DNA of 64,000 nt, from sequence record OZ209057.1. One strand, given 5' to 3'. The notes beneath the pieces are model-generated. The model searched no databases and was not told the origin of the DNA. It was given only the letters and a program-made list of their open reading frames with translations. The stretch is from Escherichia phage T4. This document shows positions 2,429 through 57,139 of this stretch, piece by piece; positions within the stretch are counted from its first letter, which is position 1; each line of letters begins with the position of its first letter. The position numbers were made by a program, and so were the translations under genes.

Positions 2429-2458
2429 ATTATACCACATCCTTGTGGTAAAGTAAAC
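2429..2458 (-). promoter_or_regulatory. T4 early-type promoter (minus strand GTTTAC-N18-TATAAT)
   Basis: revcomp reads GTTTACTTTACCACAAGGATGTGGTATAAT; near-identical copy at 50093..50122. Confidence 0.7.
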
Positions 2459-2990
2459 TACTGGCTCATCCATTCTTTACGAAGGTCAGCATTATCTCCC
2501 ATGAGCATTTCAAAAAGCTCTTTCCAGTTCTCAGGAAGTTTAACAACATCATATACTGGGTTTTGAATCATCTCACGATATTCAGATTTTTCCAAAGAGC
2601 CAAGTCCCTTAATATAACGGATGCTATGTTTAGGTAGAGCATCTTTGGCACTCTCATATTCAGCGACTGTATAAAACCATTCTTGTTTTTTACCGACCTG
2701 AGCGATGATTACAGGAGTTTTGACAAAGCGAATTCGTCCTTGCTCAAACAATTCTGGCCAATTACTAAAAAATCCGAGCAGAGAAGGATAAATAGAACCT
2801 AATCCAATAATCTCTTAATTATGAGGTATTTCTATAGATAGCCCGAAGGCTATCCATCGTGATCTGCGTCTGTCATAATAGCGACATTCGCATAGTTCAT
2901 TGAAGAGGATTTAATAGAACGACGAACATTGTTCTGCAATTTATATTTTTTCATATCAACGCTAGAAGAATCAATTTTTACAAATTTCAT
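2458..2990 (-). CDS. 60: DNA topoisomerase II subunit gp60 (GyrB C-terminal-like), translated with a 50-nt ribosomal bypass: codons 1-46 = 2853..2990, codons 47-160 = 2461..2802, stop 2458..2460
   Basis: N-term MKFVKIDSSS...IMTDADHDG (TOPRIM DxD) ends at GGA followed by TAG; downstream frame LGSIYPSLLGFF...KEWMSQ resumes after a GGA; total 160 aa. Confidence 0.92.
2803..2852 (-). other. 50-nt coding gap of gene 60 (programmed translational bypass / ribosome hopping element)
   Basis: minus strand: GGA|TAG CCTTCGGGCTATC...TTATT GGA|TTA; take-off GGA 2853..2855, UAG stop, CUUCGG stem-loop, landing GGA 2803..2805, resume codon UUA 2800..2802. Confidence 0.88.
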
Positions 2991-6469: not shown

Positions 6470-6568
6470 TACAATTTCCTCATTAATTGAACAGTGGAGC
6501 GATACGTTTCAGAAGAGTATCAACACCTTTAGCGAATTTTCCATTTTATTCTCCAAGTTGTTTTCTGT

Positions 6569-6611
6569 ATCAGTAGTTGATATTGATATAGTACCATAAT
6601 CAACTACTGAT
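6569..6611. repeat. perfect 13-bp inverted repeat (atcagtagttgat / atcaactactgat) flanking a 17-nt loop that contains a -10-like TACTATA element
   Basis: read directly; related to promoter-leader repeats at 26155.. and 54465.. Confidence 0.7.
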
Positions 6612-6639
6612 GTATATAGTTTTATGAAAAATTTAAACT

Positions 6640-9395: not shown

Positions 9396-10715
9396 TCATA
9401 CATAAAACACATCATAACGACCACGGGTGACACCAACATAAAGAAGTTGTTGAGCTAATTCAGCATCTGCATAATGAATACAAGGCGTATAAATGAAAGC
9501 ACGGTCTACAGACATACCCTGCGCTTTATGGAATGTTGATGTAGGAAGTGCTTTCACTTTACTAAACTGTGATTTAGCATCCCAAAAATCACTCCACGGA
9601 GCTTTTCCGCCTTTGTTCCAATTTTTATAAGTTTCTGCTGTTTTACCTAAAAATAGGTTAAACTTATACAATTCTTCGTCAGATGAAATTATTTTAATCT
9701 TTTCACGATAATATTCATCATCGCCATAAGTTTCTACTGTTAAATCCCAATGACGAATTAGATATTCTCCAGGAACACCACGGGCTTTAACAAACGTTGA
9801 TGTATACTCTGCTTCTATAATACGAACTAATTGTCCGTTATTAAAAATAATTTCTGACACAGGCTTTCCATCAATTTTATATGTTTTAATTAATGGTTCC
9901 TGCATTACAATAATTTCACCGACAATAAAATCTTTATCAGTTTCAAAAATCTTTTTACGAATAATGCTATTTAACTTGTCAACAGATTTATTCGTAAATG
10001 CCATTACGCGATTTTCAAACAAATCATCTAGTGATTTGACGATTGAAAAATAATTTACCATAAAATCGCGTAAAGCGGTATCACCAGTAAATCCACGTAC
10101 TCCATGCCCGTCAACAACTTTATCATAAATCCACTTACCGTTGCGAACGTCAGTAGCTACATCAATAATAGGAGCATTACTGCGTTTAACTTCAGTGAGT
10201 TCACACTGATAAAAATCTTTATGTGTAAAGAATGGACTGATATAAGCAGTATTTTCTCCTGGGTCAACAGGTCTGATTTGCTTATTATCCCCTATTCCAA
10301 TTATAGTACACCAAGGTGGAATAGTTGAAAGCAGAATTTTAAATAGCTTTCTATCATACATTGACACTTCGTCGCAGATTAATACTCTGCATTTGGCTAA
10401 ATCAGGTACTTCTTTTTGTTCAAAAAGAACATTTTCTTCATATGTTACTGGGTTAATTTTAAGAATACTATGAATAGTACTCGCTTCTTTCCCTGATAGT
10501 TTTGAAAGAATCTTTTTAGCTGCATGTGTAGGAGCTGCTAAAATAATACCAGTTTCACCCGTAGATATTAAAGCTTCAATGATGAACTTAGTAAGAGTAG
10601 TCTTACCGGTACCAGCAGGTCCATTAATAGTTACATGATGTTTCTTTTCTTTAATAGCCTTCATAACAATGTTAAAGGCATTTTTCTGGCCTTCGGTCAA
10701 ATCATCAAATGTCAT
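9396..10715 (-). CDS. dda: Dda SF1B DNA helicase
   Basis: 439 aa; Walker A GPAGTGKT; length and N-terminus match T4 Dda as recalled. Confidence 0.92.
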   Translation of the reverse strand: MTFDDLTEGQKNAFNIVMKAIKEKKHHVTINGPAGTGKTTLTKFIIEALISTGETGIILAAPTHAAKKILSKLSGKEASTIHSILKINPVTYEENVLFEQKEVPDLAKCRVLICDEVSMYDRKLFKILLSTIPPWCTIIGIGDNKQIRPVDPGENTAYISPFFTHKDFYQCELTEVKRSNAPIIDVATDVRNGKWIYDKVVDGHGVRGFTGDTALRDFMVNYFSIVKSLDDLFENRVMAFTNKSVDKLNSIIRKKIFETDKDFIVGEIIVMQEPLIKTYKIDGKPVSEIIFNNGQLVRIIEAEYTSTFVKARGVPGEYLIRHWDLTVETYGDDEYYREKIKIISSDEELYKFNLFLGKTAETYKNWNKGGKAPWSDFWDAKSQFSKVKALPTSTFHKAQGMSVDRAFIYTPCIHYADAELAQQLLYVGVTRGRYDVFYV

Positions 10716-20539: not shown

Positions 20540-20568
20540 AACAATCTCCTCATTTAACCGACAAGACT

Positions 20569-20598
20569 ACTATACCATAGTCTTGTCAGCTTGTAAAC
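20569..20598 (-). promoter_or_regulatory. early-type promoter GTTTAC-N18-TATAGT
   Basis: plus strand actata 20569..20574, gtaaac 20593..20598. Confidence 0.55.
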
Positions 20599-24385: not shown

Positions 24386-24603
24386 TTATAAATCAATAGC
24401 TTTTTTGAACGCATCTTGCCATTCGGCTAATCATTAACATCTACTTCATCAAAAGATTTAGTGTAAACACCATTTTTAAGAGAAATAATGTCGACATTAA
24501 GACCCATTTCAGAAATAACTTTAAAAAGATAAATAGTTTCAGAAGATGGAACAGTTTTAAAATTAATAACATTATTACCCATATTAATTATAGCAATTTT
24601 CAT
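24386..24603 (-). pseudogene. bgt: beta-glucosyltransferase remnant: 58 N-terminal codons then TAG, joined out of frame to the last 13 codons (AEWQDAFKKAIDL)
   Basis: hand translation from ATG 24603 gives MKIAIINMGNNVINFKTVPSSETIYLFKVISEMGLNVDIISLKNGVYTKSFDEVDVND*; stop at 24427..24429; C-terminal codons present in a shifted frame. Confidence 0.8.
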
Positions 24604-25779: not shown

Positions 25780-26160
25780 TCACTTAGTCAAATTTTTTAC
25801 ACATGAATTATAAGAATTCACTACATACTCCATCGGAGCGTTTTTACCTGTACGCCACTGGTAATTATTAGCCCAATTTGCCCAAAGCTCAGCGCAGTAG
25901 TTTTCAATTTTTTCTTCGCGTGTAATTACATCTGAATTACGATATGCTTGAGCAGATTCATTTGGACGAATAGCTTCGTCAAAATTCGCCTGCATTTGTT
26001 CTACTGTCTGTTTTGGAGCTTCTTTATAACACTTGACATTAGGATTATAAAATTTGCTTGAACAGTTTACAATTTTTCCTACATCAGACTGATTTACTAC
26101 CGGTCCTTGAGCTACACAACCAGCAAGACCTAATGCAATAACCAAAATAGCGATTTTCAT
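25780..26160 (-). CDS. predicted lipoprotein (imm.1 position)
   Basis: ATG at 26160; MKIAILVIALGLAGC lipobox; GGAG Shine-Dalgarno. Confidence 0.6.
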   Translation of the reverse strand: MKIAILVIALGLAGCVAQGPVVNQSDVGKIVNCSSKFYNPNVKCYKEAPKQTVEQMQANFDEAIRPNESAQAYRNSDVITREEKIENYCAELWANWANNYQWRTGKNAPMEYVVNSYNSCVKNLTK

Positions 26161-26248
26161 TTCATTCTCCAAATCCGTATCAGTAGTTGATAGTTGTATA
26201 GTACCATGGAAGAACAGTCTTGTAAACAGTTTTGTGAAAAAATTTTTA
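26155..26248. repeat. promoter-leader repeat, copy B (about 90 bp, near-identical to 54465..54553)
   Basis: shared string ttcattctccaaatccgtatcagtagttgatagttgtatagtaccat ... cttgtaaacagttttgtgaaaaaatttt; contains early promoter atagta 26198..26203 / gtaaac 26222..26227. Confidence 0.75.
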
Positions 26249-26325
26249 GGGAATCCAAAGGGTCCAGAATCATCTCTTTTTCATAAGTATAGATTTATAT
26301 TACTTGTATGAAAAAGGGACCTGGA

Positions 26326-26341
26326 GGTCCCTAGATTTATT
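26326..26341 (-). terminator. rho-independent terminator after gene 43
   Basis: gggacc tgga ggtccc hairpin, U5 run in minus-strand transcript. Confidence 0.7.
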
Positions 26342-35596: not shown

Positions 35597-35756
35597 ATAT
35601 CAAGAACCGTCATTGAAATGCAAAATAAAATTATTGAAATAAATCCATCTGGAGTGCTAAAGAACCCAATCCAACATGCTCTAGTGAATAGATAAAATGC
35701 AAGAAAAAGTATCACATATCCAAGAAATATCATTATATCAAACTCCGTATAAAGCT

Positions 35757-35774
35757 AAAGGGCCGAAGCCCTTT
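35757..35774 (-). terminator. UUCG hairpin at alpha-gt 3' end
   Basis: aaagggc cgaa gcccttt overlapping stop codon. Confidence 0.5.
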
Positions 35775-37828: not shown

Positions 37829-37879
37829 TTTAGTTTATTTTACCAAAAAATTTATAAAGCAATATAAGAGCCGAAGCTC

Positions 37880-40824: not shown

Positions 40825-40854
40825 ATAATACCACGGTTTGAACTTGTTGTAAAC
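40825..40854 (-). promoter_or_regulatory. early-type promoter GTTTAC-N18-TATTAT
   Basis: plus strand ataata 40825..40830, gtaaac 40849..40854; upstream tract related to repeat B. Confidence 0.5.
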
Positions 40855-40935
40855 AACTTTGTGAAAAATATTTTAGGGAATGATAAGAAAGGAACGATAG
40901 CTTAGAATGGTAATATACAGAATGTGAGAAAGAAA

Positions 40936-43957: not shown

Positions 43958-44990
43958 CTTCATCAATGTGTTCAGTAGAGTTCGCTACTTCTCTACCCGT
44001 TTATATGAAACAATGTAATTTGGATAATTGTCATCTAAACACAAATCTTTAATACGACTTGGGTGGAGTTTTAAATCTTTAGCAGCATCCACAAATGATT
44101 TATAGATATTGTCATTTATTTTAACATATTCTGGGACGGGATGAATTGTTATTTTTATATCTATAACATTTGGATGATTACTAACCTGTTCTTCAGAGCA
44201 TTTAAGAAATTTTGCAGCTGATTTAAAACTTCTAAATTTATTTCCGGATTTTAAAGCTATAGAAACAGTCTTTTTAGCCGTTCTACTACCAATATTATTT
44301 TTAACATGAGCTTCACTTCTACTATTATTTTTATAATGCTCAATCAATTTCTCTCGTATCTTATCTTTATGTTTTAAAGATAAGATTTTACCTTTATGGG
44401 CATTACTAAGTTTTTGCTTATGTTCTTCTGAATCCGGATATTTGTTAAATTTATATCCACCTATAGATTTATTAAGAATAAATTCGTTATTAAAATATTT
44501 CCTAATAAGCATTTCTTCATGTTTAAGGGCCGATTCATAAGAATCAAAAACTTGAAGAATTATCCACTTAGCTTTATAATCTTTAAGCTTTTCTTTAACA
44601 AGCTTAGATGACGAATTGTATTCTTTCCAATTTGTATCTTTACCATATATAGTTTTGAATTTTTTAAAACCTATATAAAAAGACTTATCAGGAAATCTTA
44701 CCATATAGGTAAATGCTACAGAATTGGCAATTTTTAAGCTTTTTCTTAATTTCCATTTCATCGTTTCACCTCGTATTCATATTTATACGAGGATAAACAG
44801 CTGCATGTCACCATGCAGTTCAGACTATATCTTCAACTCTTAGAGTTGTCTGCCGTTTCGGGTCGCTTGACCCTACTCCCTTACATTCATCAGGGATAGT
44901 CGTTGGGCATTTACAGCTACTGCTGATTTAGCAACGGATTGTCTCAGTGAGAGTTTCCCGTTTTAGGCAGATTTTACATGAGCTTGACTT
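43958..44990 (-). mobile_element. group I intron in nrdD (1033 nt) carrying I-TevII
   Basis: exon 1 frame ends at U (44991), proposed intron ends with G (43958); 5' part has no long ORF, consistent with structured RNA; boundaries inferred, not proven. Confidence 0.7.
43985..44761 (-). CDS. I-TevII: intron-encoded homing endonuclease I-TevII (GIY-YIG)
   Basis: 258 aa ORF inside the intron; FTYMVRFPDKSFYIGF GIY-YIG-like motif. Confidence 0.85.
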   Translation of the reverse strand: MKWKLRKSLKIANSVAFTYMVRFPDKSFYIGFKKFKTIYGKDTNWKEYNSSSKLVKEKLKDYKAKWIILQVFDSYESALKHEEMLIRKYFNNEFILNKSIGGYKFNKYPDSEEHKQKLSNAHKGKILSLKHKDKIREKLIEHYKNNSRSEAHVKNNIGSRTAKKTVSIALKSGNKFRSFKSAAKFLKCSEEQVSNHPNVIDIKITIHPVPEYVKINDNIYKSFVDAAKDLKLHPSRIKDLCLDDNYPNYIVSYKRVEK

Positions 44991-45534
44991 ACGTTAACTC
45001 ATAAGCTTGGAATGCATCGTATACGTCTTTTTCTGTTTTAGATTGAGCATAATTCAACGCATCAGCGATTTGCCATTTTTCTGCATCCTCAATATGTTTT
45101 GCATAGGTGCGTTTAACATAAGGAGAAAGTACTTTATCTACATTCGCAAAAGTCGTTCCGCCGTATTGGTGAGAAGCAACTTGCGCAGTAATTTGTGCCA
45201 TAATTGCAGTAGCAACTCCAATTGATTTAGGAGTTTCAATCTGCGCATTACCAAGCTTAAATCCGTTTTCAAGCATTCCTTTTAAATCTACTAAACAGCA
45301 ATTAGTAAATGGAAGAGCAGGGGAATAATCAATATCATGCACGTGAATAATTCCGCTTTCATGCGCTTTCATAATAAAAGACGGGACCATATTTTTGGCA
45401 ATGTGTTTAGACACAATACCAGCCATAAGGTCCCGTTGAGTTGGAAAAACACGAGAATCTTTATTAGCATTCTCGTTTAAAAGGTCTTTATTAGTTTTAT
45501 GAATTAATCCTTCAATTTCTTTTTCAATTGTCAT
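44991..45534 (-). CDS. nrdD: anaerobic ribonucleotide reductase NrdD, exon 1
   Basis: 181 codons from ATG at 45534; exon 1 + exon 2 total 605 aa as recalled for T4 NrdD. Confidence 0.8.
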
Positions 45535-50092: not shown

Positions 50093-50122
50093 ATTATACC
50101 ACATCCTTGTGGCAAAGTAAAC
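50093..50122 (-). promoter_or_regulatory. early-type promoter GTTTAC-N18-TATAAT
   Basis: near-identical to promoter at 2429..2458 (attataccacatccttgtgg.aaagtaaac). Confidence 0.7.
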
Positions 50123-51144
50123 TAGTTCAGTGCATTTAGTGCATTGTTCAGTTTAGAACGTTGCTTTGTCAGATTTTGAACCCTTGACTGAGCTTGTTCT
50201 AACGCCTTTTCAGCTTCTAGCACTTCATTGGTCGCTTTAACTAATTCAGCATCTACTGCCTTAAGAGACTTCTCAATCGCATCCGCGTGCCATTTTTCAA
50301 CAGGTTTAAGACTTGGATTTTCAACAGGAAGAAAATTCACTTTATTGAATTTCCATGCATCTTTATTACCTGAGCTATACATCCAAAATTTAGGATCGTT
50401 TGATAAGTAATTAGATAAATTTAAGTTATCTTGCACTTCTTGCTTTTTCTCTTGTGTGACTTCGTCCTTTCTCAAAAATTCATATTTAAATGAAACGATC
50501 ATATCAAGTTCATATGATGTTGTATCTAACTTAAATCGTTCAAAACGAGGTAAAATCTTAGATTGAACAGCAGCAACAACATCCATATACTTAAATGCTT
50601 CTGTCAACTGCGATTTAAGGCATTCGCAAATTGAAAGAGAATTTTTTGTATTAGGTTTAAAGCTAATTCGTGCAGTTCTATTATTTTCTTTTAACGGTCT
50701 TACTTCCATCTGAAGAGTATAACCATCAAATTTCAGATTCTTTAAGTTAATGTCAGAGCCTTTTAATCGACTAGCAGTAGACAAAATTTGCTTTAATTGT
50801 CTACGGAACAGAGCAATAAATCTCCATTCAATACGATAATGATTTGGATTGAAAAATCCAGATGATAAATCGACCTTACTTTGACCAACGCCTTGAACAA
50901 ATAGAGGATTTTTATAATCAATAGTTTTACAGAAATCGGTGAGCTGTTCACGAGCAGTCATTTGAGTAATATACCCTGCTTTACTAAAATTACGCACCCA
51001 TTCACTGCTATTCGTATACTTAAAGTGATGAATAACACGATTAACTTTATCAGGGTCTAAATTATTTTCACACAAAAATGTCATAACATCACGAGTATAG
51101 CTGGCATTACGAACCATATCTTCAATTTGAGAACGAGTTTTCAT
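50122..51144 (-). CDS. coiled-coil protein, member 3 of paralog array
   Basis: 340 aa; motif FRRQLKQILSTASRLKG; C-terminal coiled coil. Confidence 0.55.
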   Translation of the reverse strand: MKTRSQIEDMVRNASYTRDVMTFLCENNLDPDKVNRVIHHFKYTNSSEWVRNFSKAGYITQMTAREQLTDFCKTIDYKNPLFVQGVGQSKVDLSSGFFNPNHYRIEWRFIALFRRQLKQILSTASRLKGSDINLKNLKFDGYTLQMEVRPLKENNRTARISFKPNTKNSLSICECLKSQLTEAFKYMDVVAAVQSKILPRFERFKLDTTSYELDMIVSFKYEFLRKDEVTQEKKQEVQDNLNLSNYLSNDPKFWMYSSGNKDAWKFNKVNFLPVENPSLKPVEKWHADAIEKSLKAVDAELVKATNEVLEAEKALEQAQSRVQNLTKQRSKLNNALNALN

Positions 51145-52507: not shown

Positions 52508-53035
52508 TTATGCGAGTACCGTATTTAACCGTTCTTCAAACTTCCGAAGAGTGTTCTGGCGTTCAGCTCTTTGCTTTTTGTAAGTTTCAATACGCTCTGA
52601 AATGAGAGTGTATCGTTCATTTACTGATTCTTTCATAAAATCAGGAATTTCACGAGAAGCTTTAATCTCGTCAAATTTATCAATAACAGCTTGCTCTTCA
52701 GCAATTAAGTTATCATACATCAAAATATCTTTCTTGATGAACTCAATATCTTCTTGAGTTACACGAGATAATTTAGATGCTTTATCCTTTTTGTACTGTT
52801 CGTTAGTATCACGAGACCAGTGTAATGTACGATTTTTATTCGTATTCTTGTAAATTTCTACAATACCAATCTCATCGATAATAACGATCCAATTCCAACG
52901 GGATTTGTAAATTTGTCCTCCATTAACAGTGATTTCACCTCCGATTGAGATGTCATTAAAGAACTTGCTTTGTGCTTCTGATTTAAATTTACCATCGTTG
53001 TAATTTACCAGGTTGAAAATATCTTTAGCGTTCAT
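52508..53035 (-). CDS. hypothetical protein
   Basis: ATG at 53035 after GGAGG, downstream of promoter 53064..53093. Confidence 0.5.
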   Translation of the reverse strand: MNAKDIFNLVNYNDGKFKSEAQSKFFNDISIGGEITVNGGQIYKSRWNWIVIIDEIGIVEIYKNTNKNRTLHWSRDTNEQYKKDKASKLSRVTQEDIEFIKKDILMYDNLIAEEQAVIDKFDEIKASREIPDFMKESVNERYTLISERIETYKKQRAERQNTLRKFEERLNTVLA

Positions 53036-53063
53036 TTTGTGTTCCTCCGTAGTTGATAGTTGT

Positions 53064-53093
53064 ATAGTACCACAGAGGAACGGTCTTGTAAAC
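53064..53093 (-). promoter_or_regulatory. early-type promoter GTTTAC-N18-TACTAT
   Basis: plus strand atagta 53064..53069, gtaaac 53088..53093; flanked by inverted repeat gttcctc/gaggaac. Confidence 0.5.
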
Positions 53094-53500: not shown

Positions 53501-54469
53501 TTATTTCAGAAGAGTAACCGTAGCGATTTCTTCCCAACCGTTTTTGTCGGTCATAATAAAGTCAGCAAGATAAAGTGCAGTACGCAGTGAAACATTACGT
53601 AAACGGTTAACATTGACTTTCATCCATGATAATGCTTTATAAGTTTCTTCATCAGAAAGACCACGCTTTTGCATCATGTCGGTTGAAAGAATAACATCTT
53701 CAACCCTGACCATAATTTCTTCATTAGTGTGAACACCCAAATCCAAATAAACTGAGCGGGACACTAATGCTTGTAAATGTGGAGCAAGTTTAGTACCACG
53801 GTCTAATTCGCGGTCAATGTCAACGTTTGTGATAAAAACAATTGTTCCTTTAAATTCAAACTCACGCTCAATGCCTTTTTCTTCTAAGTAAGAAGATGCA
53901 GTGCTCCAGCAGACTTTACGGGTCTCTCCAGTGTCCAGAGCAGCTTTCAGAAGATTAAGAATGTCCATATCAGAGAAAACATCCACATCATCAATCAAAA
54001 GGACAGAATTCTCTTCACGATTATTCCAAAGCTGTTCATAAAGACCGATACCAGAGATTTTACCGTTAATGCTTTTATACTCAATGTATCCAATATCATT
54101 TGCTTTATTCAAAGCTTTATCTAAAGAATATGTTTTACCAATACCCGCCGCACCAGAGATAATTAATGAACGAATATTTCCGTTAATAATACCATTCGTC
54201 ATCATTCCCATAACATTAAATCTTTTATTAATGCGGGTTTTCATATCTTCATATGATTCTTTAACTTCTTCAACTTTTACACCATCATATGAAATGTCTG
54301 ATTTGTAAACCCAAACACCGCGACGTTTACCGTCAATTTCAACAAAAACTTTACCATCTCCTTGTGCATCTACCGGAGCATTATCAGGGAACCATTCACC
54401 TAAGAGCTCAAAAGTTCCAGAGATTTCTTTACCGAAGTAGATACCCTTATTGATAGTTACAGTTTTCAT
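53501..54469 (-). CDS. P-loop ATPase (AAA-like), nrdC.10 position
   Basis: Walker A GAAGIGKTYS, Walker B LLIDDVD; ATG at 54469 after GGAG. Confidence 0.65.
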   Translation of the reverse strand: MKTVTINKGIYFGKEISGTFELLGEWFPDNAPVDAQGDGKVFVEIDGKRRGVWVYKSDISYDGVKVEEVKESYEDMKTRINKRFNVMGMMTNGIINGNIRSLIISGAAGIGKTYSLDKALNKANDIGYIEYKSINGKISGIGLYEQLWNNREENSVLLIDDVDVFSDMDILNLLKAALDTGETRKVCWSTASSYLEEKGIEREFEFKGTIVFITNVDIDRELDRGTKLAPHLQALVSRSVYLDLGVHTNEEIMVRVEDVILSTDMMQKRGLSDEETYKALSWMKVNVNRLRNVSLRTALYLADFIMTDKNGWEEIATVTLLK

Positions 54470-54553
54470 TTTATTCTCCAAATCCGTATCAGTTGATAGT
54501 TGTATAGTACCATAAAGCTTTATGCTTGTAAACCGTTTTGTGAAAAAATTTTG
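54465..54553. repeat. promoter-leader repeat, copy C (near-identical to 26155..26248)
   Basis: contains early promoter atagta 54504..54509 / gtaaac 54528..54533 and the ttattctccaaatccgtatcag leader. Confidence 0.75.
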
Positions 54554-54563
54554 AAATAAAAAA

Positions 54564-54581
54564 GGGAGCCCGAAGGCTCCC
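54564..54581 (-). terminator. rho-independent terminator (UUCG hairpin + U6)
   Basis: gggagcc cgaa ggctccc preceded on plus strand by aaaaaa. Confidence 0.75.
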
Positions 54582-54583
54582 TA

Positions 54584-56977: not shown

Positions 56978-57109
56978 TACATACTCCTCTGAATCATATT
57001 AATAATGTTATTCACCAGATTATAAGTAAACATTGGGTAATTATATTGAATCATCACATATATAACAAACAAAACTTTCATTCTCTTCTCCTTGGCAGTT
57101 GACAAGATT

Positions 57110-57139
57110 ACTATACCATAATCTTGTCAACTTGTAAAC
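57110..57139 (-). promoter_or_regulatory. early-type promoter GTTTAC-N18-TATAGT
   Basis: plus strand actata 57110..57115, gtaaac 57134..57139. Confidence 0.5.

Follow-up and report, generated by a model that had tools for sequence, protein, structure and literature searches.

Early-region cassettes of T4 and the two copies in the window

Among the closest described counterparts of the sequences analyzed here are the PeSLs (promoter-early stem-loops), composite elements that consist of a stem-loop, an AT-rich tract, -35 and -10 hexamers, a Shine-Dalgarno (SD) sequence and a start codon (Arbiol et al., 2010, PMC2839356; Comeau et al., 2014, PMC4122927). PeSLs adjoin small, plastic open reading frames (ORFs) and provide homology for modular shuffling (PMC2839356, PMC4122927). 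The PST/T4 PeSL consensus is TTTACW-N17-TAYWAT, and the T4 ndd.4/.5 cassettes serve as an example in the 2014 PeSL paper (PMC4122927); earlier observations on T4, by Repoila (1994) and Mosig (1998), are cited in the 2010 paper (PMC2839356). T4 early promoters are of a UP/-35/TGn/-10 type with further consensus regions and out-compete host promoters right after infection (PMC2988021), and the consensus of their -35 element, at -36 to -31, is GTTTAC (PMC1524935). The target of RegB/S1 is an 11-nt single-stranded site, GGAGAAUAAAA in T4 and GGAGRAYARAA generally, which in most cases doubles as the Shine-Dalgarno sequence of an early mRNA (Durand et al., 2006, PMC1702504). In that study 68 intergenic GGAG motifs were tested, and its text names neither imm.1 nor nrdC.10.

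Here we describe two copies of a cassette of this kind in a window of 64,000 nucleotides from Escherichia phage T4 (record OZ209057.1), the window being the whole stretch of DNA that was analyzed. Both loci are 99.7-100% identical to bacteriophage T4 records by megablast, and the window is collinear with positions 1-64,858 of AF158101.6, except for an 838-bp gap within b-gt; the ends of this deletion were checked for promoter repeats, and no repeat was found at either end. The genes at both loci lie on the minus strand, and comparison of the window with itself shows the two copies to be direct repeats spaced 28,309 bp apart. The imm.1/nrdC.10 pair represents two members of the known T4 early promoter/PeSL family, and the feature is already known, because its architecture and behaviour match the PeSL of Arbiol et al. 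(2010) and Comeau et al. (2014). We suggest that the two sequences very probably belong to a dispersed family of T4 early-promoter and translation-initiation cassettes, the members of which are alike through selection together with patch transfer. The two copies and their parts are the following:

26158-26247, minus strand: copy 1, imm.1 leader with its predicted early promoter, between imm.1 and gene 43 (DNA polymerase), just 3' of the latter
26315..26332, minus strand: copy 1, intrinsic-terminator hairpin (AGGGACCTCCAGGTCCCT, then a T-run) after gene 43, from a terminator scan
26228..26247, minus strand: copy 1, A/T-rich UP-like tract AAAAATTTTTTCACAAAACT, from the sequence
26198..26227, minus strand: copy 1, core early promoter of imm.1, with GTTTAC at 26227-26222, TGG at 26206-26204 and TACTAT at 26203-26198
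26158..26197, minus strand: copy 1, leader ACAACUAUCAACUACUGAUACGGAUUU, then an SD/RegB-like 11-mer GGAGAAUGAAA at 26170-26160 and the imm.1 ATG at 26160-26158, from the CDS annotation
54467-54552, minus strand: copy 2, promoter and leader of nrdC.10, between nrdC.11 and nrdC.10
54563..54582, minus strand: copy 2, terminator hairpin (AGGGAGCCTTCGGGCTCCCT, then a T-run) after nrdC.11, from the scan and the U76612 annotation
54534..54552, minus strand: copy 2, A/T-rich UP-like tract AAAATTTTTTCACAAAACG, from the sequence
54504..54533, minus strand: copy 2, core promoter "Pe 54.4" of nrdC.10, with GTTTAC at 54533-54528, TGG at 54512-54510 and TACTAT at 54509-54504
54467..54503, minus strand: copy 2, leader, then the SD/RegB-S1 consensus GGAGAAUAAAA at 54479-54469 and the nrdC.10 ATG at 54469-54467, from the sequence

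Every sequence element of a T4 early promoter (GTTTAC, TGn, spacing, -10 and UP tract) is present in both copies. Each contains TTTACA-17 nt-TACTAT with a TG ahead of the -10 hexamer (an extended -10), and the UP-like tract AAAA(A)TTTTTTCACAAAAC is common to the two, at 26228-26247 and 54534-54552. Both are oriented toward early-region ORFs, and the start codons of imm.1 and nrdC.10 follow 34-37 nt downstream. In GenBank record U76612, copy 2 already bears terminator, -35 and -10 features, with the label "early promoter 54.4", and nrdC.8 bears a -35 and a -10. The description of both loci as promoter plus leader in an earlier note on this DNA is therefore borne out by the two hexamers, their 17-nt spacing, the TGn and the annotation of copy 2. 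A literature search on the mapping of T4 transcription start sites found no relevant paper; the imm.1 and nrdC.10 copies appear to be T4 early promoters, the strength of which we infer from their sequence.

The hairpins upstream of the promoters have 7 and 8 bp with 5-6 G-C pairs, are each followed by a T-run, and are on the same strand as the promoter; their distance to the -35 hexamer is 30 nt at copy 2 and ~88 nt at copy 1. Downstream, the leaders of imm.1 (37 nt) and nrdC.10 (34 nt) end in GGAGAAUGAAAUG and GGAGAAUAAAAUG, respectively, and both have the arrangement GGAG-6 nt-ATG. Neither leader is more stably folded than its shuffled versions (z = 0.0 and +1.0), so that a structured RNA or riboswitch within them is ruled out. 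Searches of Rfam gave no family match at the leaders, the sole match in the window being the nrdD group I intron.

At the start of nrdC.10 the sequence GGAGAAUAAAA agrees with the RegB/S1 consensus at 11 of 11 positions, and at the start of imm.1 GGAGAAUGAAA agrees at 10 of 11, the exception being a G at position 8, which shows a strong preference for A. Only two sites in the whole window conform to the strict consensus, and the GGAG region of both leaders is unpaired in the minimum free energy (MFE) structures. Cleavage by RegB at the imm.1 and nrdC.10 leaders is thus predicted from the consensus match. The same promoter and initial transcribed region are carried by motA, a classic RegB substrate.

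The earlier note had described the pair as a near-identical repeat of ~90 bp with 85-95% identity. The repeat is present where it was placed, with an identity at the low end of that range: 79 of 95 columns (83%) are identical in a global alignment of 26155-26248 with 54465-54553 on the minus strand. The similarity is block-wise and comprises three exact blocks of 18-25 nt each, namely block 1, AAAATTTTTTCACAAAAC[T/G]GTTTAC, which is exact in both copies save for one variable base, and blocks 2, TGGTACTATACAACTATCAACT, and 3, GATACGGATTTGGAGAAT, which are exact in the imm.1 and nrdC.10 copies; after these, both copies continue with [G/A]AAATGAAAA. In dinucleotide-preserving shuffles with 3 mismatches allowed, the chance expectation for blocks 1, 2 and 3 is 0.00, 0.00 and 0.08 matches, respectively, and the repeat pair is real and non-random. 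The longest block of perfect identity is only ~23-25 nt. Only 9 of 18 positions match in the stretch from GTTTAC to TACTAT, and the imm.1 leader has a 3-nt insertion (ACT) relative to that of nrdC.10. The DNA similarity stops 6-7 nt past the ATG, and by BLASTP the imm.1 protein is unrelated to that of nrdC.10 (E = 5.9). As for the first codons that the two genes had been said to share, "MEN.MK", the likeness holds for those 6-7 nt, and MEN.MK itself belongs to a mechanically called ORF started at TTG; the annotated starts are the ATGs at 26160 (imm.1) and 54469 (nrdC.10).

A dispersed and mosaic family

The imm.1/nrdC.10 pair is not special within its family. When repeat positions were compared among relatives with the 99-nt imm.1 repeat as query, each Tequatrovirus genome gave 6-9 matches, and complete T4 contains ~9 copies, located before imm.1, nrdC.10, ndd.6, e.8, motA, frd.3, nrdC.8, ndd.4 and cef. 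Over ~105 nt, the pairwise identity of 27 T4 early promoters has a median of 0.57, and the closest six (motA, frd.3, nrdC.10, ndd.6, imm.1 and e.8) have a mutual identity of 0.70-0.80; the imm.1/nrdC.10 pair, at 0.78, ranks 5th of the 351 pairs that these 27 promoters form. A comparison of the window with itself recovered the pair and, in addition, the first two of the following features; the third is a related tract reported earlier:

53033..53093, minus strand: third copy, the nrdC.8 early promoter, with GTTTAC at 53093-53088, TACTAT at 53069-53064, a shorter leader ACAACUAUCAACUACGGAGGAACACAAA, and ATG
6542..6617, minus strand: degenerate copy between motB and cef, in which ATATAC replaces GTTTAC, with TGGTACTAT, an e.8-type leader, GGAGAAUAAAA and an 11-codon mini-ORF
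40825..40880, minus strand: early promoter of gene 55.6, with a UP tract, GTTTAC at 40854-40849, TATTAT at 40830-40825, and an unrelated leader

The nrdC.8 copy is 90% identical to that of imm.1 over 49 nt, including the spacer, which is imm.1-like; it is closer than the nrdC.10 copy and had been overlooked, as had the degenerate copy upstream of cef (the fourth in the window) and the ~9-copy family of T4. The tract at 40831-40880, which had been called related to the repeat, is 82% identical to it over 28 nt and stands as the UP and -35 part of the gene 55.6 early promoter; the relation does not extend to the leader. The e.8 copy is retained in the Mosigvirus phage PhAPEC2, in whose genome blastn gives no other match to the imm.1 repeat, and because of this conservation e.8 may be the oldest member of the family.

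Within the family, spacers and leaders are combined in different ways. The nrdC.10 spacer is that of frd.3 (18 of 18 positions; frd.3 lies outside the window), but the nrdC.10 leader is shared with imm.1 and ndd.6. The imm.1 spacer agrees with that of ndd.4 at 17 of 18 positions, and the imm.1 leader with that of ndd.6 at 39 of 40 (97% identity within T4); imm.1 and ndd.6 also have their first four codons in common. Comparison of T4 with RB14 shows the orthologous leaders of nrdC.10, nrdC.8 and e.8 to be 98-100% identical, whereas the imm.1 leaders are only 83% identical and differ by a multi-base block and a 6-nt change in length. The RB14 imm.1 leader is 98% identical to that of RB14 e.8, that is, of the e.8 type. 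This swap of leaders at imm.1, seen when T4 is set beside RB14, indicates patch exchange, and we infer the direction and mechanism of such transfers from comparisons of this kind.

At the site 3' of gene 43, the IMG/VR contigs of relatives have leaders of at least four kinds and spacers of at least three, and the same cassette stands before different ORFs at ndd.6 and at nrdC.10/frd.3-type sites in the IMG/VR loci. The IMG/VR pattern scan yielded 6 T4-like contigs, which serve as examples and are too few for statistics. Because the scan demanded that a portion of the leader match exactly, the invariance of that portion among these loci is circular. In phage U115 and related phages an extra 78-codon ORF directly follows the shared leader, at ATGAAAAT, and in U115 imm.1 comes after this ORF with another ribosome-binding site. 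Searches of sequenced genomes gave no product of crossing-over among the family members, and the evidence for exchange is comparative, consisting of patches and swaps.

Explanations for the likeness

Each cassette runs, in order, from a terminator hairpin through a UP-like tract, GTTTAC, a 17-nt spacing with TGn, TACTAT, a ~35-nt unstructured leader and GGAG in an A-rich stretch to ATG AAA. Its promoter would be fired by the host sigma-70 RNA polymerase immediately after infection, and its leader would provide efficient translation initiation; later inactivation of the early mRNAs could follow from GGAGAAU(A/G)AAA in the leader, which, judged by its match to the consensus, is the type of site cut by T4 RegB/S1. 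The copies would resemble one another in part through selection on these stacked signals and in part through occasional transfer of patches between copies by the very active homologous recombination of the phage. The outcome is a set of mosaic cassettes before unrelated genes, as in PeSL modular shuffling.

The similarity might instead be due wholly to selection, convergent or purifying, for function in transcription start, leader and ribosome binding, with no transfer of sequence. All of the conserved blocks do overlap the UP tract, the -35, the TGn/-10 or the SD/RegB site, the spacer, as the least constrained part, is the part that differs between imm.1 and nrdC.10, and the nrdC.10, nrdC.8 and e.8 cassettes of T4 differ little from their RB14 orthologues, that of e.8 being kept even in PhAPEC2. 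We nevertheless consider selection alone unlikely, given that unconstrained spacers are still shared (nrdC.10 with frd.3, imm.1 with ndd.4), that the T4 and RB14 variants of the imm.1 leader each have a nearly identical counterpart elsewhere in their own genome, and that at least four leader variants occur 3' of gene 43 in relatives. The chance that the pair is instead the remnant of a segmental duplication of a gene with its promoter, which would make imm.1 and nrdC.10 paralogues, seems to us close to nil. The similarity does run past the start codon (ATGAAAA), and imm.1 and ndd.6 share ATGAAAATCGCT, but it ends 6-7 nt into the ORFs, the RegB/S1 consensus and the preferences of translation initiation account for the A-rich stretch after GGAG and for the ATG AAA, and duplication of the imm.1 and nrdC.10 genes is ruled out by their unrelated proteins. 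A further possibility concerns the initial transcribed block ACAACUAUCAACUACUGAUAC, which might be a specific cis-element, for example a site bound by a phage or host factor, through which a subclass of early transcripts would be co-ordinated in escape, stability or shut-off. This block is identical in at least six T4 copies (imm.1, nrdC.10, ndd.6, e.8, motA and nrdC.8) and in RB14, where spacers and distal leaders vary, and it falls outside the classical promoter and SD elements; moreover, T4 early promoters have extra consensus regions (PMC2988021), and their shut-off is not understood (PMC2988021, PMC3014915). On the other hand, ACAACUAUCAACUACUGAUAC has no predicted RNA structure and no Rfam match, other strong T4 early promoters lack it, and shared descent with patch transfer accounts equally well for its conservation, so that a dedicated element here is quite improbable. 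That ACAACUAUCAACUACUGAUAC marks an early regulon of six to eight members including the master regulator motA, under control of promoter escape, Alt responsiveness or shut-off, and is more than a passenger in a recombining cassette, is a speculation to which we would give the same low weight. No factor is known to act on this block.

The earlier note had pointed to a different consequence, namely homologous recombination of the pair, by which about 28 kb would be deleted or duplicated. On this reading the pair would matter mainly as a substrate for unequal recombination that gives rise to structural variants of the phage in stocks. Such an exchange is formally possible between direct repeats 28,309 bp apart with exact blocks of 18-25 nt in both copies, and patches of <50 bp can suffice for recombination in T4 (Singer et al., 1982, cited in PMC2839356). 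A precedent exists in T4 strain 147, where a 2,081-bp deletion that removes a-gt and mobB has its crossover in an 8-nt match, GCCGAAGC, common to two terminator hairpins, not promoters; in T4, then, non-essential DNA does get deleted by way of short regulatory repeats. The interval between the present copies, however, holds genes 43, regA, 62, 44, 45, 46, 47, 55, nrdD and 49, and because 43, 62, 44, 45, 46, 47 and 55 are among them, the product of a 28-kb deletion would be without essential replication and late-transcription genes. A 28-kb duplication, for its part, far exceeds the few kb of terminal redundancy permitted by T4 headful packaging. The identity of the two copies is also broken by the dissimilar spacer and the indel. 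Synthetic junctions (nrdC.11|imm.1, 43|nrdC.10 and nrdC.11|nrdC.8) were used as queries, with coverage of at least 80% of the query as the criterion: the deletion junction nrdC.11|imm.1 and the duplication junction 43|nrdC.10 were absent among 531 and 524 matching T4-like records, respectively, and no record covered at least 80% of the query for the short-range deletion junction nrdC.11|nrdC.8. The general idea of the repeats as substrates for recombination thus holds, in keeping with the PeSL model (PMC2839356, PMC4122927) and with the mosaic and swap data, whereas the specific 28-kb deletion or duplication fails on the essential genes, on packaging and on the missing junctions. We regard recombination of that kind as the main role of the pair as very unlikely, and the specific 28-kb consequence is biologically unimportant.

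Comparison with known systems

The result matters little beyond correct annotation, in that a T4 cassette and its family likeness have been rediscovered from raw sequence. The likeness of T4 early cassettes has been documented since the 1980s-2000s and was formalized as PeSL-mediated modular shuffling in 2010 and 2014. What is added here is the T4/RB14 leader swap at imm.1, the exact RegB/S1 consensus at the nrdC.10 start, and the lack of a 28-kb crossover in ~525 genomes; these three points illustrate the known PeSL model and do not extend it.

As compared with the T4 early promoters (Pe), both copies share GTTTAC, the 17-nt spacing, TGn, a -10 of the TAnnAT type, the UP tract and location on the early strand, and there is no essential difference, copy 2 being the annotated Pe 54.4 itself. 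The tight subfamily described here is set apart from other T4 Pe by a common initial transcribed region and a partly common leader. The likeness to the RegB/S1 targets of T4 early mRNAs lies in the same SD-overlapping, single-stranded 11-nt site, from which imm.1 deviates at position 8.

The composite order of the PeSLs, made up of stem-loop terminator, AT-rich tract, -35, -10, SD and start codon is present in both copies, which also match the consensus TTTACW-N17-TAYWAT. A PeSL has the SD and start codon at its 3' end, and here too the similarity ends just past the ATG. The association of PeSLs with small non-essential ORFs and indels has its parallel in the U115 insertion. Exchange between the present copies is supported by the mosaic blocks and the T4/RB14 leader swap, and no crossover junction was found in genomes. 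Two differences can be noted. The imm.1 hairpin lies ~88 nt upstream of the -35 and does not abut it, an arrangement looser than that of the typical compact PeSL, and the PeSL exchanges that are productive take place among neighbouring cassettes of hyperplastic regions, whereas the present pair is 28 kb apart and spans core replication genes. More distantly, the "linker" sequences that Botstein and Campbell associated with modular phage evolution and the "morons" of lambdoid phages, both discussed in PMC2839356, are likewise cases in which short conserved regulatory sequences flank exchangeable modules with a promoter and a terminator. For morons, movement by way of their own regulatory sequences is not assumed, whereas in the T4 cassette the regulatory part is itself the shared homology.

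Members and relatives of the cassette family

The promoter-leader cassette shared by imm.1 and nrdC.10 has further copies both within the window and outside it, and relatives of T4 differ in what follows the leader.

AF158101.6 ~167011-167098 (outside the window): ndd.6 cassette, compared with the imm.1 copy at window 26149-26197
PhAPEC2 locus 601-696: e.8 cassette of this Mosigvirus phage, with UP tract, GTTTAC, spacer, TACTAT and leader
Window 6542-6617, - strand: cassette copy in the motB-cef interval
U115 locus 672-1006: insertion region, with its counterpart at window ~26160

The entire leader and the first four codons, ATGAAAATCGCT (MKIA), are common to ndd.6 and imm.1, and in relatives the cassette at the ndd.6 site stands ahead of another ORF (MKFKFYY...). 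The e.8 cassette is kept across genera, from T4 to PhAPEC2. When the imm.1 repeat is compared by blastn with the PhAPEC2 genome, this cassette alone matches, which suggests that the multi-copy family expanded within Tequatrovirus.

The copy between motB and cef is degenerate, with GTTTAC replaced by ATATAC, and its -10 is bracketed by a perfect 13-nt inverted repeat (ATCAGTAGTTGAT / ATCAACTACTGAT). It carries an exact match to the RegB consensus, GGAGAAUAAAA, a putative target of the RegB/S1 endoribonuclease, and only an 11-codon mini-ORF (MENSLKVLILF) lies downstream.

In phages U115, EC101, MLP2, ZCEC15 and sutha, approximately 247 bp of extra sequence separates the shared leader from imm.1. 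The U115-type insertion starts exactly at the shared ATGAAAAT and encodes a small ORF (MKIVMGCLAV...) whose predicted product looks membrane-bound or secreted.

Two further early-promoter pairs in the window have cores more alike (97% and 92%) than those of the imm.1/nrdC.10 pair.

Window 2429-2460 and 50093-50124: early-promoter pair
Window 20560-20598 and 57101-57139: early-promoter pair

One of these pairs has CCACAAGGATGTGG in the spacer, and in the other the -10 is bracketed by the inverted repeat GACAAGA..TCTTGTC.

Deletions in strain 147 and in b-gt

In T4 strain 147 (KJ477685), a-gt and mobB have been lost via a 2,081-bp deletion.

Window 35747-35772 and 37853-37878: repeats at the strain 147 deletion
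Strain 147 locus 10587-10612: corresponding repeat

The crossover lies within the 8-nt GCCGAAGC, common to two terminator hairpins with TATAAAGC flanks. The deletion was mediated by a stem-loop-type repeat, not a promoter repeat.

The window itself is missing 838 bp within b-gt (beta-glucosyltransferase), at 24428/24429, equivalent to AF158101.6 24443-25280. The junction reads CATTCGGCT|AATCATTAAC, with microhomology of at most 1-2 bp, and the gap is not divisible by 3. The junction is absent from every record of the phage collection searched, so the source of the window is a T4 derivative that lacks b-gt.

nrdC.10 length and the nrdD intron

Window 53504-54469, - strand: nrdC.10 ORF, 322 codons counted from the ATG
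Window 44801-45032, - strand: group I intron in nrdD (Rfam RF00028, 105 bits)

The annotation of AF158101.6 (54343-55320) implies 325 codons for nrdC.10, and the difference from 322 is a small one in length between T4 sequence versions. The group I intron in nrdD corresponds to the I-TevII intron already described for T4.
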